Positions 1-42,553 of a stretch of 42,587 nt of DNA are shown piece by piece; position 1 is the first letter of the stretch; each line of letters opens with the position of its first letter. A model generated the notes under the pieces. The model saw only the letters and a list, made by a program, of their open reading frames with translations, did no database searches and had not been told where the DNA came from. The position numbers and the translations under genes were made by a program. The DNA is from Candidatus Kaiserbacteria bacterium RIFCSPHIGHO2_01_FULL_46_22 (GTDB lineage: Bacteria > Patescibacteriota > Minisyncoccia > Phycocordibacterales > UBA918), in contig MFKO01000008.1 in NCBI GenBank assembly GCA_001779595.1, positions 5,618 through 48,204 of the forward strand, in the 5' to 3' direction.

Positions 1-639
1 GGTCATAGACGCGTCTTCACCCAATGTAGGCTCAGGAGTATATGAAATCAGAGACGTTGGCTTGGTTTCAGTAATTATAAAGGTCAGAGTAGCATCGCCA
101 GAAACAGCGGACTCACTACTTTCGCCCTGGACACTGTAGTCGTATTTAGACACTACGGCATCTTTCAGAACGTTGGCATTCTGAAGCAGCTCTTGCTGCC
201 AAATCACTTCGTTTAATTCTTCCGCTTGGCCAGTCAACGCCAACTCGAATTGACCGTTAGGTAAATACTTATATTCCATCGCAGAAAACCGAACATTGTC
301 TGCCACTACTGTTTCCAAATCTTCAAAGATTTTCGAAGGAGCGGCCGATTCATTGACGAGTTTTTCTGCATTTGTTAGACGAGCATCAAGCAACTTGATT
401 GATTCAATTTCTGAGGTACTGAAACGTGAACGCTCAGTAGTCAGCTGGTCTTTGACCGCCATCACTGATCGGTTAACGCTTGCTGCATAAAGAAAAACTC
501 CCGCTACCGCAAAAAGCGTGCCGAAAAAAACGATGTAACTGACATAGCTTAGGACATAAATCCTATGCGTACCGCGCGTCCGCACAGTTGACACGCGATT
601 GCTGTTTTTAGGAATGAAAGAAGATCCTTGGCCCTCCAT
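1..639 (-). CDS. PilN-like type IV pilus assembly membrane protein (partial, runs off window start)
   Basis: Not in the ORF track. ATG at 639 reads MEGQGSSFIPKNSNRV..., then a hydrophobic helix (IYVLSYVSYIVFFGTLFAVAGVFLY); the codons at 1-60 are open in the same frame. Lies downstream of pilM; TATAAT 7 nt upstream of the ATG. Confidence 0.6.
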   Translation of the reverse strand, partial: MEGQGSSFIPKNSNRVSTVRTRGTHRIYVLSYVSYIVFFGTLFAVAGVFLYAASVNRSVMAVKDQLTTERSRFSTSEIESIKLLDARLTNAEKLVNESAAPSKIFEDLETVVADNVRFSAMEYKYLPNGQFELALTGQAEELNEVIWQQELLQNANVLKDAVVSKYDYSVQGESSESAVSGDATLTFIITETKPTSLISYTPEPTLGEDASMT

Positions 640-813: not shown

Positions 814-945
814 AATAAAACTCCTAAAATCGGATGCAGTTGTGCCAGTTGGAGGAATTTTTACGAGAGAGCCTTAGATTGAACTAAGGTGACCGAGTAA
901 AAATTCCGAAACTGGTGCAAATGTGCTGATTTTGGGAGCTTTATT
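814..945 (+). repeat. Long imperfect hairpin element overlapping the pilM stop codon (related to 37042-37208)
   Basis: Nested stems CTCCTAAAATCGG/CTGATTTTGGGAG, TTGTGCCAGTT/AACTGGTGCAA, GGAATTTTTAC/GTAAAAATTCC and CCTTAG/CTAAGG; several G-T pairs on the + strand. Confidence 0.7.
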
Positions 946-2029
946 GGAACGCGCGGAGAGCGGCACCCAACGCCACCCCAAAAGAAGGCCCAATTTGACG
1001 CAGTGTGTCCTCTAGGAATGCCGGATACGCAACCTTCGAGAAAGGATTTGCCAATTCCACTGGTCTTCCCAAACGATCTTGTGCAAATTCGAGCATATAA
1101 GGTCCGGCAAAAACTCCGCCGCCTAAAACAATGCGTCCTAAAGGCGTATTGGAACGCGCCTCGTACTGCTCAATCAAACGACGAAATTCCGATAACGGAC
1201 TTTCTAACACGGTGGTAGTAACCTTATATATTTCTGCGCCTTTTTCTTCAGCTCGGTCGTAAGAACGCTTAATATCTTCCGCGGCTTCAAAAGGTATTCC
1301 GAGAGTTTGTGATACGCGTTTTGTTATCTCTTGACCACCCTGCCCCACACGATGCAGGCGTTCCAAGTTACCCTGACGAACTAGGTAAAGTTTAGCTCCG
1401 CGTGCACCGATATCGATGATAGCCAGCGTTGTATCACTCTGCCGCCAAGTCGAGCGGATCAAACTAAAAACTTCGATCTCGGCCGGTTGTGATGTCATAC
1501 CAATATTCATCAAGAGTGACCGGTATTCTTCTAGCGCGTTATTTTCAACCGCCGCTAACATTATCTCGTGCATATTATTAGCAGTTGGAGGAGCTGGAAT
1601 CTCTGTCCAGTCTAACGTCACTTCTGAAAGTGGTAGTGGTACGTATTTACGCGCTTCGACAGGAACCCTGGCAGCTAAACTGTCTGTTGTGTTCTGCATT
1701 ACCGGCAAAGTGATGACGGTGACAAAACTTGAAGAAAGCGGCATTGCCAGCGCACCACTACGTCCTTTAACACCTGCCTCACGCAGCACATCCGTCACAG
1801 CCTCTACTCTGTGTTGTTCAGTTAGAGTTATGATCTCACCCAGAGGTTTTCCTTCGTATGGACCCAACTGCAATTCTCCATAGGTGCGCAACGCTACAGC
1901 TCTTTCAATATCTTCCAACTCAACCACCTTCACTGAAGAACCGCCGATATCAATACCGACGGCCATAGATGACCGCGCAGGAGTAGTTTCACTTAATCCG
2001 GAAAAGATTTTTTTAAAAGAAAAGGCCAT
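941..2029 (-). CDS. pilM: Type IV pilus assembly protein PilM (actin-like ATPase)
   Basis: VGIDIGGSSVKVVEL phosphate-1 motif, IIDIGA, IVLGGG, ANPF and C-terminal VALGAALR, all typical of PilM. Confidence 0.9.
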   Translation of the reverse strand: MAFSFKKIFSGLSETTPARSSMAVGIDIGGSSVKVVELEDIERAVALRTYGELQLGPYEGKPLGEIITLTEQHRVEAVTDVLREAGVKGRSGALAMPLSSSFVTVITLPVMQNTTDSLAARVPVEARKYVPLPLSEVTLDWTEIPAPPTANNMHEIMLAAVENNALEEYRSLLMNIGMTSQPAEIEVFSLIRSTWRQSDTTLAIIDIGARGAKLYLVRQGNLERLHRVGQGGQEITKRVSQTLGIPFEAAEDIKRSYDRAEEKGAEIYKVTTTVLESPLSEFRRLIEQYEARSNTPLGRIVLGGGVFAGPYMLEFAQDRLGRPVELANPFSKVAYPAFLEDTLRQIGPSFGVALGAALRAFQ

Positions 2030-15908: not shown

Positions 15909-16295
15909 GGGGATGACAGGCATCGACGGTTTGCCCGGTTCATCTGCGCAATGCCGAAGTTGAATGGGACTTCGCTAAAACTCATTCATCTGTACGTGCA
16001 AACAAAAGCGTACCAAGCCCGTTTGCATACGGGTTCGCCTTCGCTCGAGCTTAAATTTTAGCTCGCGACTGGCGACGCCGCGTTACCTGACGTTTGATAA
16101 GGTAATGTCGGTGGAATAGCCATCGAACTCTAGATAATTGGTTTGTTCCTCCAATTATCCAAAATGTTAGGAACTGCTCGTCTGAAGGTTTTGCCTACTT
16201 TTCCACTTCAGACGCTAAGATCTAAACTAGGCTATGCATTGTAGACTCAGCTGGATCGACATTCTCGGACGGCGGTTCAATTCCGCCCATCTCCA
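15909..16295 (+). ncRNA. ssrA: tmRNA; predicted tag (A)ANKSVPSPFAYGFAFARA
   Basis: 5' GGGGATG pairs with 3' CATCTCC-A including G3-U; GGCATCGAC D-loop analogue; GGACGGCGGTTCAATTCCGCC T arm; tag frame GCA(15998)...TAA(16054); close to smpB. Confidence 0.93.
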
Positions 16296-16555
16296 CGAGT
16301 ACAAAAATCCGCTCACACATTTGTGTGGGCGATTTTTGTTCGTGGAGATGGAGAAAGCAAACTGCTTTGCTTTCGTGCGGAGTTGAACAGGCGGAGCTAT
16401 GTTTTTCTTCCCTTCCTAGAAGAAAAACGAGCGAGCCGGGCCGGCAAGTACTTATGAACGCAGTGAATTAGTAACTTGGTATGTCAACTCCGCCCATCTC
16501 CACGAGTACAAAAATCCACACGTTACGTGTGGATTTTTTGTTCGTGGAGATGGAG
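16277..16555 (+). repeat. Duplicated and mirrored tmRNA 3' end
   Basis: 34-nt direct repeat 16277-16310 / 16484-16517 (1 mismatch); each copy is followed by a short hairpin and then an antisense copy (16331-16353, 16532-16555). Confidence 0.85.
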
Positions 16556-26349: not shown

Positions 26350-26694
26350 ATGTCACGTGTTAAAGGAGGATTGATGGCGCAAAAGCGCCGTCGTAATATC
26401 CTCGAACAAGTAAAAGGCTATCGTTTCGGCCGTTCTAAGAAGACCAAGCAGGCCATTGAGGCGATCCATCACGCCAAGAACTACTCATTCGCTCACCGTA
26501 AGGATAAGAAGAATGATTTCCGTCAACTTTGGATCGTTCGCATCAATGCTGCCCTGATGGCTCACGGCATCAAGTACAGTCGCTTCATCAAGGCCCTCAA
26601 GGACAAAGGTATAGCAATTGATCGTAAGATCCTCGCTTCCTTTGCCAAGGACCGACCAGAAGTCTTCAATCGTATTGTCGACCAAGTAAAATAA
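26350..26694 (+). CDS. rplT: 50S ribosomal protein L20
   Basis: MSRVKGG, KGYRFGRS, FRQLWIVRINAA, YSRFI, IDRKILA. Confidence 0.97.
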   Translation: MSRVKGGLMAQKRRRNILEQVKGYRFGRSKKTKQAIEAIHHAKNYSFAHRKDKKNDFRQLWIVRINAALMAHGIKYSRFIKALKDKGIAIDRKILASFAKDRPEVFNRIVDQVK

Positions 26695-26735
26695 ATAAAA
26701 TCCCCGACTCTAGAGTCGGGGATTTTATTTATTTT
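26688..26735. terminator. 48-bp perfect palindrome, bidirectional terminator
   Basis: AAAATAAATAAAATCCCCGACTCT/AGAGTCGGGGATTTTATTTATTTT. Confidence 0.85.
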
Positions 26736-36170: not shown

Positions 36171-36215
36171 GCCCCCGACTCCTTGATGACTAGACGTCAT
36201 CAAGGAGTCGGGGGC
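36171..36215. terminator. 20-bp perfect hairpin (CCCCGACTC family)
   Basis: GCCCCCGACTCCTTGATGAC-TAGAC-GTCATCAAGGAGTCGGGGGC, followed by TTTACTTT on the - strand. Confidence 0.75.
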
Positions 36216-37003: not shown

Positions 37004-37038
37004 CAAAAAAGCGCGGGCCTTCGGCTCGCGCTTTTTTG
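37004..37038. terminator. Terminator (GCGCGGGCC family)
   Basis: CAAAAAAGCGCGGGCC-TTC-GGCTCGCGCTTTTTTG. Confidence 0.75.
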
Positions 37039-37041
37039 CTT

Positions 37042-37208
37042 TAAACTTTCTAAATTGGAGGAAATTCGACGGACTGGAAGAATTTTGTAGACCAAACGAA
37101 GAAGTCCGGGGGACTTGCTTCGAATGTCCGTCTTAGGACATTTTTATGCCATACGGTGCGGGAGACAAAATTCCGAAGTCCTAGAATTTGGCCAATTTTG
37201 GGAGTTTA
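37042..37208 (+). repeat. Long multibranch hairpin element overlapping the SIMPL stop codon (related to 814-945)
   Basis: TAAACTTTC/GGGAGTTTA, AAATTGG/CCAATTT, GGACT/AGTCC, GAATTTTGT/ACAAAATTC; inner hairpins AAGTCC/GGACTT and AATGTCC/GGACATT. Confidence 0.7.
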
Positions 37209-38006
37209 CTGAATCTCGTAGGTAATGTTGACGATAGACCGGATAGTGTTTTCTCCCATTGGAAGATCCGGTGACGTAGCCTTTTCTTCACGAGCCATCA
37301 TTGCGTCGCCACCCATACCGTAGTCATAGTATGGAGTTGGGTAACTTTCTTCTTCGTAATAACCCATGGTGCGAACAATCTCGACACCAAGGTCATCCGC
37401 CAACTTCTCAGCCTTCTCCTTAGCATCAGCGATTGCCGCAGTGCGAGCTTCAGCCTTCAAGTTTGACTCGTCGTCGATAGTGAACTGAAGTTGACTCAAG
37501 TTAGTCGCGCCACGTTCACCAGCACCAGTGATGAGGTCACCAGCTTTATCTAGATCACGGACTTTTACTTCAATCGTCTGAGTCACTTCGTAGCCGTCTA
37601 TGACTGGGTCGCTAGGTGGACAATACATTCCAGACGCGCAAACCACTGTATCGTAACGATATTTCGGATTCAGATAATAATCACGATTCTTAATGTCTTT
37701 TTCTTCAACACCAGATTCTTTGAGGAAAGATAGAATGGCATTGATCTTTTCGGCTGAGTCATTTTGTGCAGTTGCAGCATCAGGACCTTCGGCAGTTACT
37801 GAAAAACTAAATGAACCAATGTCTGGTGTGGCATTCACTTCGCCTTCGCCACGTACATTGATAGAGGTCATTCCATACTGACCATACTTTGCTTCACGAA
37901 GTGTCAGTTTAGTGTAAGCGGAGAGTGACAAAACAACTCCAATCAGTGCAACGACTAAAAGTACACGCACGTACCAGAGTGATAAAAATGGTTGATTTGT
38001 ATCCAT
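37206..38006 (-). CDS. SIMPL (DUF541) domain protein
   Basis: TM, INVRGEGEVNATPD, GVEEKDIK, EARTAAIADAKEKAEKLA, GENTIRSIVNITYEI. Confidence 0.9.
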   Translation of the reverse strand: MDTNQPFLSLWYVRVLLVVALIGVVLSLSAYTKLTLREAKYGQYGMTSINVRGEGEVNATPDIGSFSFSVTAEGPDAATAQNDSAEKINAILSFLKESGVEEKDIKNRDYYLNPKYRYDTVVCASGMYCPPSDPVIDGYEVTQTIEVKVRDLDKAGDLITGAGERGATNLSQLQFTIDDESNLKAEARTAAIADAKEKAEKLADDLGVEIVRTMGYYEEESYPTPYYDYGMGGDAMMAREEKATSPDLPMGENTIRSIVNITYEIQ

Positions 38007-38991: not shown

Positions 38992-39034
38992 ATAACGAAA
39001 CAGCCGGCCTCGAAGAGGCCGGCTGTTTCGTTAT
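38992..39034. terminator. 20-bp perfect hairpin
   Basis: ATAACGAAACAGCCGGCCTC-GAA-GAGGCCGGCTGTTTCGTTAT. Confidence 0.7.
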
Positions 39035-42019: not shown

Positions 42020-42553
42020 ATGAAGGAATTATCTCCAATTGAAAAACGAGCTCGGTCCCTTACTAATTGGGTTGGGTCGCCTATTTCCGTAGCTGTTCAT
42101 ACGGTCATATTCATAGCGGCTTTTCTACTTTCTGTCTTAGGTCTTGTGGAATTTGATCGAATGCTATTAGTGCTGACGACTATAGTGTCTTTGGAAGCGA
42201 TCTATCTCGCCATCTTCATCCAAATGAGTGTGAACTTCCAACGCGAAGCTCTTCAGGAAGTTGAGCAAGATTTGGAAGAGATTCATGAGGACGTTGGCGA
42301 GATTCAGGAGGACATTGAAGGCATCCAGGAAGACGTTGAAGAGATTGGAGAGGATATGGAGGAGTTGCAGGAAGACCTTGGCGAGATTCAGGAGGACGTC
42401 GAAGAAATCAGTGAAGACTTGGAAGAATTGGATGAGTCTGCCGAAGAGGAGGCGGCTGAAGAAAAACGTAAGAACGAACAGAAAGAACAGCTGCAGAACA
42501 TCTACGACACTATCCAACGTTTATCGGTAGATATAGAAAAATTGAAGAAGTAG
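42020..42553 (+). CDS. DUF1003 membrane protein with acidic coiled-coil tail
   Basis: WVGS..SVAVH, LLVLTTIVSLEAIYLAIFIQMSVN, then EIQEDxE heptads. Confidence 0.85.
   Translation: MKELSPIEKRARSLTNWVGSPISVAVHTVIFIAAFLLSVLGLVEFDRMLLVLTTIVSLEAIYLAIFIQMSVNFQREALQEVEQDLEEIHEDVGEIQEDIEGIQEDVEEIGEDMEELQEDLGEIQEDVEEISEDLEELDESAEEEAAEEKRKNEQKEQLQNIYDTIQRLSVDIEKLKK

Follow-up and report, generated by a model that had tools for sequence, protein, structure and literature searches.

Background

Repetitive extragenic palindromic (REP) sequences typically have a GTAG head motif. At the 3′ ends of bacterial genes they stabilize the upstream mRNA and bind gyrase, and they are said to attenuate translation when they lie within ~15 nt of a stop codon. 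Miniature inverted-repeat transposable elements (MITEs) such as Correia/NEMIS, ERIC and bcr1 of Bacillus cereus are non-autonomous elements of ~100-160 bp, which can fold over their whole length, are co-transcribed and in some cases use TA targets; for bcr1, G-U pairs have reportedly been used to argue for structure at the RNA level. Here we describe a palindromic repeat family represented by two long hairpins, at positions 814-945 and 37042-37208 of a stretch of 42,587 nucleotides (the window) from Candidatus Kaiserbacteria bacterium RIFCSPHIGHO2_01_FULL_46_22, a member of the Patescibacteria or candidate phyla radiation (CPR). The window corresponds to positions 5618-48204 of contig MFKO01000008.1 (C8 below) of a genome, designated G000, which comprises 646,917 bases in 8 contigs and is 97.5% complete. 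Both hairpins are copies of a palindromic repeat of ~130 bases, which forms a large and old family that has apparently not been described before; most copies abut the stop codon of a gene on the opposite strand, and nearly all keep a single polarity relative to this gene.

Several described systems resemble this family. REP sequences and the REPINs built from them in Pseudomonas and Enterobacteria are presented in PMC3116915 as interspersed extragenic palindromes of ~100 nt, which form long hairpins in single-stranded DNA (ssDNA) or mRNA, commonly carry compensatory changes, and show long vertical persistence with occasional tandem clusters. Integron attC sites are imperfect palindromes of 60-140 nt, which are located right after an open reading frame (ORF) with a fixed polarity and a favoured bottom strand, and their structure is described as better conserved than their sequence in the accounts given by PMC2727003, PMC5027507 and PMC5371416. 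Palindromes derived from IS200/IS605 insertion sequences share with the family strand-specific hairpins and no target duplication, and they insert beside a short target resembling their own end, a behaviour that would explain tandem copies. Extragenic palindromic repeats are therefore a known kind of sequence, and what is new here is the combination of stop-codon abutment, a strict polarity lock, a favoured non-transcribed strand and a spread across the CPR phylum.

Two hairpins of the window and their repeat family

The preliminary description of this DNA, made from the sequence alone, had proposed a hairpin at each of the two sites, and folding confirmed both. The plus strand of 814-945 (copy A1) forms one long imperfect hairpin of −64.0 kcal/mol with 54 pairs, seven of which are G-U (about six G-T pairs had been counted before), and its reverse complement reaches −45.9 kcal/mol with 48 pairs, two of them G-U. 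With short flanks included, the values were −65.1 kcal/mol for the plus strand versus −46.5 kcal/mol for the reverse complement, with z-scores of −10.8 and −9.8, respectively, calculated against dinucleotide shuffles. The plus strand of 37042-37208 (copy B1) also forms a long imperfect hairpin (−61.6 kcal/mol, 59 pairs, three G-U; reverse complement −52.4 kcal/mol), with z-scores of −5.35 (plus) and −6.26 (reverse complement). Hereafter, the better-folding strand of the repeat, which is antisense to the adjoining upstream gene, is called the family strand; for copy A1 this is the plus strand.

Both hairpins overlap the TAA stop codon of a minus-strand gene, as had been proposed. Copy A1 is antisense to pilM (941-2029, minus strand, 362 aa; Pfam PilM_2, E 2.8e-34), whose TAA (TTA at 941-943) lies within the outermost base pairs of the hairpin. 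Copy B1 follows a gene of the SIMPL/DUF541 family (37206-38006, minus strand, 266 aa; Pfam SIMPL, E 4.3e-51), and the TAA of this gene (TTA at 37206-37208) is located in the base of its stem. The outer ends and the GGAGGAATTTT...AAAATTCCGAA element are common to both copies, as noted previously; B1 belongs to a different subfamily than A1 and is longer in its apical part by an inserted segment of ~45 nt (roughly 37104-37149). The outer stem of the repeat extends for ~17 bp without interruption up to the first bulge and is A/U-rich at its base.

The core motifs in the 5′ arm of copy A1 (832-855, plus strand) correspond to near-invariant alignment columns. The motif GGATG (832-836) contains a bulged A and a conserved T.G wobble, the latter found in 47 of 56 copies from related genomes, and the motif TGGAGG (850-855) forms a purine-rich internal loop facing GA. 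Both motifs are retained in the class- and phylum-level copies described below. Inspection by eye for a small ORF behind the GGAGG motif revealed no conserved start codon.

A BLAST search of G000 identified six copies of two subtypes, and a profile hidden Markov model (nhmmer) made from them detected eleven loci, ten of them at E≤0.0012 and the last at 0.022. From these eleven loci we built a covariance model, R1 (140 positions, 47 pairs), which gave 24 matches in G000, representing 17 loci and seven weaker opposite-strand rematches. In the window, R1 matched 810-949 (C8:6427-6566) with 135.6 bits and 37035-37215 with 96.2 bits. Across the genus, R1 matches were present in 109 of 128 genomes and in 79 of the 97 high-quality ones (E≤1e-6), with the number of scored copies per genome reaching at least 25. 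At E≤1e-5, matches were found in 11 of 150 other genomes of the class and in 3 of 150 other genomes of the phylum; two of the three phylum-level copies have the same core and lie at a gene end, and the third has no adjacent ORF. The copies analyzed below comprise a set of 92 (17 from G000, 25 from the related genome G004 and 50 from 38 other genomes) with duplicate loci removed and two copies cut by locus ends excluded; those from relatives are mostly the best-scoring among the matches listed, and a further 634 matches in the genus lie outside the set.

The preliminary description had called the hairpins an uncharacterized dispersed element, and this holds for a family with hundreds of copies. 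Rfam 15 contained nothing matching the element at its gathering thresholds, and at E values up to 10 it returned only chance matches to plant and animal microRNA hairpins, far under the cut-offs. Our search of the literature on repeats of CPR bacteria and Kaiserbacteria and on stop-codon-adjacent hairpins found no description of such an element. Carriage by phages was rejected after a scan of viral contigs with the pattern of one subfamily, since none of its 48 pattern matches was upheld by the covariance model.

Copies abut stop codons in one polarity

The preliminary description had named a lack of further copies, or a random association with strand and stop codons, as outcomes that would speak against it. 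Neither was the case. The 17 copies of G000 are all located at opposite-strand stops, which lie at the same end of every hairpin or up to ~20 nt inside it. In the 92-copy set, an ORF of 60 aa or more on the opposite strand stops between −14 and +10 nt from the first paired base in 75 copies (mode −3, which places the AA or AG of the stop codon in the stem), and three more miss this interval by one base. By chance, such a stop would be expected for 6.4% of positions in G000 and for 12.0% of 125-nt intervals drawn from its non-coding DNA. The stop codons at the 75 copies are TAA (62), TAG (10) and TGA (3), and TAA ends 222 of the 397 ORFs of at least 200 aa in G000. Thus, the earlier proposal that the hairpins start in a TAA stop stands with respect to the stop codon, but not with respect to its being always TAA, and some copies follow rRNA genes.

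Two copies lie ~7 nt past the 3′ end of 23S rRNA, inside rRNA operons and before tRNAs and 5S rRNA, and another lies between 16S rRNA and tRNAs. In locus L075 of genome G059 (1-1500), the 23S match ends at 482, although the sequence flanking the repeat copy at 1501 is similar to the 3′ end of 23S rRNA in locus L079; an insertion or intron may interrupt this 23S gene. About ten copies are situated between convergent genes, with stop codons at both feet of the hairpin. A single copy of the 92 is reversed, relative to a 500-aa ORF in locus L081 from another family of the class. In some copies behind nusG, the stem takes in the last four codons of the gene and the distal arm is changed to match, which suggests that the palindrome is actively kept or extended.

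The polarity of the copies was compared with the direction of genes and of replication, as the preliminary description had proposed. The GC skew of contig C8 has an origin-like minimum at ~88 kb, and most copies fit both a gene rule and a replichore rule. The two rules are separated by copy Y4, whose upstream gene encodes an M23 peptidase on the minus strand of the right replichore (a lagging-strand gene), and by contig C4 of G004, whose GC skew, taken in 10-kb windows, stays negative all the way from 40 to 200 kb. On this stretch of C4, three copies (those after the plus-strand genes of ribosomal proteins L35 and L20, and a third) point the opposite way to the remaining copies seen on it. The replichore-linked orientation that was first apparent in G000 was therefore rejected, as Y4 and the three G004 copies follow lagging-strand ORFs. 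Because the gene rule holds and the replichore rule fails in these discriminating cases, polarity is locked to gene direction and not to replication.

The genes upstream of the G000 copies encode, according to Pfam, PilM, NusG, GroEL, SIMPL, SSB, ATP synthase subunit c, YceG, ribonucleotide reductase, DnaN, an M48 peptidase, a DksA-like protein, ParB, an M23/LysM peptidase and GyrA; three upstream ORFs had no Pfam match. In relatives, the upstream genes encode ribosomal proteins L14, L35, L20, L6, L10, L21, S7 (two genomes) and S13 (two genomes), together with, among others, SecY, PilC (two genomes), PilM, aldolase, MnmA and cyclophilin. Ribosomal proteins account for 10 of 24 proteins scanned (22 ORFs preceding copies in relatives, the L10 gene of locus L124 and one ORF of the window).

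The position of the repeat relative to other signals places it inside the transcription unit of the upstream gene. A lenient scan detected a GC-rich hairpin with a T run within ~80 nt past the element in 32 of the 92 copies, ~24 of which appear canonical by eye. Copy B1 is an example, as a GC-rich hairpin between an A run and a T run at 37005-37037, which by its sequence and the terminator scan resembles a bidirectional terminator, lies directly past it as seen from the SIMPL gene. As the stop abuts the stem in 75 of the 92 copies, there is no room in these for a terminator between the gene and the element. At five G000 sites (X1, X3, Y1, Y2 and B3) the next co-directional ORF begins 15-30 nt past the element. 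The copies of relatives located directly after the L14, L35, L6, S13, S7, L10 and L21 genes presumably occupy intercistronic junctions, given the usual gene order of ribosomal-protein operons; the ORF after one L14 copy starts with MKIKKGD and was taken by eye as L24, and a G000 copy separates nusG from a 141-aa ORF which we take to be rplK. From its position before a terminator or the next cistron, we infer that the element is co-transcribed with the upstream gene in the sense direction, so that the transcript contains the weaker-folding strand.

Stem conservation, shared sites and turnover

In 31 of the 47 consensus pairs of R1, at least one copy has both sides changed with the pair retained. 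Changes private to a single copy include 82 double changes which keep Watson-Crick pairing versus 98 single-sided ones, and they comprise 38 G.T versus 23 A.C pairs. The recent bias toward G.T is modest, and the difference between the strands, which amounts to 9-29 kcal/mol in favour of the family strand in all 17 copies of G000, is mostly inherited architecture.

Sites shared between genomes include nusG (6 genomes), pilM, ssb, the SIMPL gene and gyrA (4 each), and pilC and rplN (3 each). The genome closest to G000, G068 (PilM 85% identical), shares nine sites with it, while three or four sites are occupied in G068 only and up to eight in G000 only. The pilM site carries one subtype in G000, another subtype plus a half copy in G068, and a third subtype with an insertion in G045; it has no recognizable element in G004 and is empty in G011, where the gene has a TGA stop followed by a 13-nt spacer. 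Regardless of whether a copy is present, relatives have the same PilM C-terminus (...GAALRxFQ*). The SIMPL gene carries a copy in G068, G011 and G058 as well.

Different subfamilies can thus occupy the same site in different genomes, and tandem and half copies occur. Mean identity is 62% for copies at the same site in different genomes, 55% for copies at different sites in the same genome, and 51% for copies sharing neither. Some orthologous copies are 87-91% identical and some copies within one genome 84-92%, including copies at different sites of G004 with 84-86% identity. The pattern points to long residence at a site with occasional copying or conversion. Frequently the palindrome continues through TA at both ends, with a distal TA in 27 of 67 copies and a purine next to it in 19 of these 27; such ends would be weakly consistent with insertion into the TA of a TAA or TAG stop with regeneration of the stop codon. 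In G000, a lone 3′-terminal piece of the repeat (~25-40 nt) is located at C8:197636-197676, by a GC-rich terminator and a gene end, and is probably a deletion remnant.

Candidate partner enzymes

Searches of G000 revealed no match to the reverse transcriptase domain RVT_1 or to the Y1 transposase domain Y1_Tnp. Its only tyrosine recombinase is Xer-like, best matched by XerC/XerD and scoring 71 bits with the integron-integrase model, whose cut-off is 265. No Rho RNA-binding domain was found in this 97.5% complete genome, which encodes one RNase III (C2:170799-171194).

Within the genus, Y1_Tnp is present in 80 of 128 genomes, either as multi-copy IS200-type genes (~150 aa) or as single genes (220-260 aa) resembling REP-associated tyrosine transposases (RAYTs), which score 33 bits with the NCBIfam model REP_Tyr_transpos, under its cut-off of 80. 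In genomes G070 and G011, RAYT-like Y1 genes of 220-300 aa are enclosed between paired perfect palindromes of 20-23 nt (locus L125, 1156-1210 and 1940-1994; locus L126, 1202-1243 and 2133-2186). The arrangement is that classically seen for RAYTs and REPs, and the palindromes bear no relation to the hairpin family. An R1 match was located within 1.5 kb of two of four RAYT-like loci, without flanking the gene, and of none of four IS200-type loci checked. Five genomes without a Y1 gene (G000, G068, G045, G058 and G078) still contain 9-23 copies. A link to RAYT or IS200 enzymes was rejected, given the lack of Y1 genes in copy-rich genomes and the unrelated palindromes of the RAYT-like genes. Likewise, an IS630-type transposase was rejected as the mobilizer, as DDE_3 genes occur in only 4 of the 128 genomes of the genus. 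Genomes G066 and G093 have multi-copy identical IS200-type TnpA genes (17 and 10 matches, respectively), and IS200/IS605 elements appear to be active in some genomes of the genus.

Other features of the window

The next co-directional ORF past copy A1 (1-639, minus strand, at least 213 aa, running off the window) lies 177 nt away; it matched no Pfam family, so that it is at most a putative pilN. In the region 15909-16555, the tmRNA gene has its terminal 34 nt (16277-16310) repeated 207 nt downstream (16484-16517) with 97% identity, and a 21-nt exact repeat is found at 16333 and 16535. This is a ~200-nt duplication of the tmRNA 3′ end, of the kind left by integrating elements or by tandem duplication. 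The region 42245-42433 contains six or more copies, arranged head to tail, of a 21-nt (7-codon) unit rich in GAAGA/GAGGA, which presumably encode acidic heptads. A perfect 48-nt palindrome with 24-nt arms and no spacer is located at 26688-26735 (an AT-rich run followed by CCCCGACTCT), and further perfect 20-nt inverted repeats occur at 36171-36215 and 38992-39034; these are probably bidirectional terminators.

Comparison with described systems

The family differs from each of the systems that it resembles. In contrast to REP/REPIN sequences, the unit is a single continuous hairpin and apparently not a doublet of short REP palindromes, since each arm, judged by eye, does not look like a REP-like palindrome in itself. 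Its placement is non-random, with 75 of 92 copies at stop codons in one polarity compared with 12% expected, and it has no adjacent cognate RAYT. Compared with MITEs, it appears to have no conserved terminal inverted repeat, as the sequence of the outer stem is variable and may extend into the final codons of a gene; there is no proven target duplication, DDE_3 transposases are rare in the genus, the polarity lock is strict and folding is better for the strand that is not transcribed. IS200/IS605 elements orient with the lagging-strand template, whereas the hairpin family follows the gene even where this lies on the lagging strand; moreover, it has no subterminal hairpins split by other sequence, and G000 has no TnpA. 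An intrinsic terminator is marked by a short GC-rich stem and an adjoining U run at the end of a transcription unit, whereas the stem base of the family is A/U-rich, deep copies have no T run and many copies are internal to operons.

The attC trait of a favoured bottom strand in a post-ORF position with fixed polarity is found in the hairpin family as well, judging from predicted folds. Unlike attC sites, the copies form no arrays, have no integron integrase and follow housekeeping genes and rRNA. The first bulge is ~17 bp from the base, there is no layout of R-box, unpaired spacer and L-box, and a sequence core is conserved. The RYYYAAC/GTTRRRY consensus is absent, as the preliminary description had pointed out, and the ends read TA(A/G)(A/G)ACTT...AAGT(T/C)(T/C)TA instead.

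Interpretation

With a little less than an even chance, the reading that we favour is a REP/REPIN-like palindromic repeat of ~125-140 bp, fixed as a transcribed hairpin at 3′ ends or between cistrons. The location before terminators or cistrons, the transcription-tied polarity and the association with highly expressed genes suggest a polarity selected on the sense transcript, and the repeat-like population behaviour suggests an element of the REP/REPIN type. The sense transcript would form a hairpin of approximately −35 to −55 kcal/mol, punctuating highly expressed mRNAs and operons. By analogy with REP sequences, this hairpin would block 3′-to-5′ decay and might perhaps serve as a processing site for RNase III. 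Selection at the RNA level would keep the weaker-folding strand in the transcript, thereby fixing polarity. More weakly, copies may move between sites by copying or conversion that lands on the TA of TAA or TAG and regenerates the stop codon.

A number of observations weigh against this reading, and foremost among them is the strand asymmetry. The preliminary description had held that folding is favoured on the non-coding strand, and the family strand is indeed the better folder in 72 of 72 copies with RNA parameters and in 91 of 92 copies with DNA parameters, with a mean margin of 5.7 kcal/mol in the latter. In the paired columns of 56 relatives' copies, the family strand has 2202 Watson-Crick, 179 G.T, 39 A.C and 119 other combinations, counts that carry some bias as the alignment was fitted to the model; four positions supply 111 of the 179 G.T pairs. 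The internal loops are purine-rich on the family strand (GGA/GA, and GAGAGAG facing TGACCGA in copy A1) and pyrimidine-rich in the mRNA, and on the family strand they could form tandem G.A pairs. The better fold, the excess of G.T pairs and the purine loops are marks of a structure selected on the strand that is not the mRNA. Mutation bias was rejected as the cause of the asymmetry, because the composition of four-fold sites on the coding strand (T/C 1.58 versus A/G 1.35) would favour G.U pairs in the mRNA strand and points the opposite way. A stem weakened for melting by ribosomes is without specific support, as the asymmetry is even along the whole stem and not concentrated by the stop codon. 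The better structure of the antisense strand is left unexplained by a REP/REPIN-like repeat selected in the transcript. In addition, the three filled and empty site pairs between G068 and G000 have unalignable spacers and prove no target-site duplication, no mobilizing enzyme was identified for the repeat, and the mRNA-stabilizing or processing role is one that we infer by analogy only. Finally, REPINs are reported in PMC3116915 to be random in extragenic space, unlike the hairpin family.

The asymmetry fits a rival reading, in which the antisense strand folds as a bottom-strand ssDNA site recognized by a recombinase or HUH nuclease, as are the bottom strands of integron attC sites or the REP/REPIN hairpins cut by RAYTs. 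Copying or recombination would then use the hairpin as substrate, with the presence of the element in transcripts being incidental. This had been one of the two proposals of the preliminary description, and we keep it as the main rival, although we consider it unlikely overall. The strand preference of the predicted fold, wobbles at conserved positions and the purine-rich loops all fit it, and post-ORF position, fixed polarity and favoured bottom strand form the triad known from attC sites, as far as these are covered in PMC2727003 and PMC5027507. Genus-level copies have AAC...GTT at the hairpin base, tandem and half copies and subfamily replacement suggest insertion beside existing copies, and Y1 genes of the IS200 or RAYT type are widespread in the genus. 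However, polarity follows transcription and not replication, and we know of no process that exposes the template strand as ssDNA in a transcription-coupled way. G000 has neither a Y1 transposase nor a reverse transcriptase, its only tyrosine recombinase is Xer-like and no integron integrase, genomes without Y1 genes retain their copies, and the RAYT-like genes of relatives have palindromes of their own, with R1 matches near only some of them. The upstream genes are core housekeeping genes rather than cassettes, and the deeper-branching copies have GAC/GTC in place of AAC/GTT at the base. The polarity lock to transcription would also fit a dedicated cis-regulatory RNA motif, bound by a protein in the sense transcript and co-regulating a growth-related regulon of ribosomal-protein, chaperone, replication and pilus genes, with possible effects on stability, on 3′-end formation (no Rho having been found) or on translation of the neighbouring cistron. 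Such a motif, which seems to us somewhat less likely than the ssDNA site, would also be in line with the core sequence and architecture kept up to the phylum level, with the conserved loop motifs, with the recurrence of copies at the same orthologous junctions (nusG, pilM, ssb, gyrA and rplN), and with the share of ribosomal proteins among the upstream genes. Against it, the loops of the sense RNA are pyrimidine-rich and the conserved wobbles become C.A mismatches, and we know of no binding protein. Site occupancy differs even between the two closest genomes, with the pilM site being empty in G011 and without a recognizable element in G004, and the subfamily swaps at one site and the similarity of copies within a genome are the behaviour of a repeat.

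Both polarity and the better fold of the antisense strand would follow from a device acting in antisense RNA, either an antisense small RNA, the other proposal of the preliminary description, or a one-way block formed in the RNA of polymerases entering the gene from its 3′ end, which, no Rho having been found in the genome, would shield its highly expressed genes. The genus-level copies do end with TTTT(A) after the hairpin on the antisense strand. We regard such a device as improbable in general, since the bidirectional terminator-like hairpins past about a quarter to a third of the copies lie just upstream of the antisense 5′ end, where they leave no room for a promoter and would in any case halt incoming polymerases. 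Many other copies, located in operons, are only 15-30 nt from the next co-directional cistron. Inspection of 70 upstream flanks by eye showed no −10 box at a constant distance; moreover, the base of the stem is rich in A/U, and copies from the class and phylum samples have no T run. That missing T run also speaks against the hairpins being unusually long intrinsic terminators of the upstream genes, for which their position between A and T runs at gene ends might be taken. Many copies are internal to operons, including those of rRNA, and precede a further cistron or tRNA; many have a separate canonical terminator behind them, and a core common to copies across phyla is not expected of independent terminators, making this explanation very improbable.

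A broader possibility, which we rate about level with the ssDNA site, is a new class of signal across the Patescibacteria: a transcription-locked hairpin, whose selected form is the bottom strand or its RNA complement, recognized by a factor that marks the 3′ ends of highly expressed genes or operon segments. Its role might be, for example, factor-dependent 3′-end formation or termination where Rho was not found, or transcription-coupled recombination or copying of ssDNA that lands on stop codons and restores them.

Implications

The polarity lock, the stop abutment and the better fold of the non-transcribed strand can each be put to the test, and no described repeat family has all three in combination. 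The genomes of CPR/Patescibacteria are tiny and streamlined, and repeats would not be expected to persist in them, yet a structured repeat of ~130 bp has been kept behind genes for ribosomal proteins, a chaperone, replication and pili and within rRNA operons, throughout much of a genus and sporadically in the wider phylum. The R1 covariance model provides an annotation marker for several hundred intergenic segments which are now unannotated. If the hairpin acts as bottom-strand ssDNA, it would represent an attC-like principle outside integrons, and if it shapes mRNA decay or processing, it would be a general expression device of uncultured bacteria in which Rho was not found.

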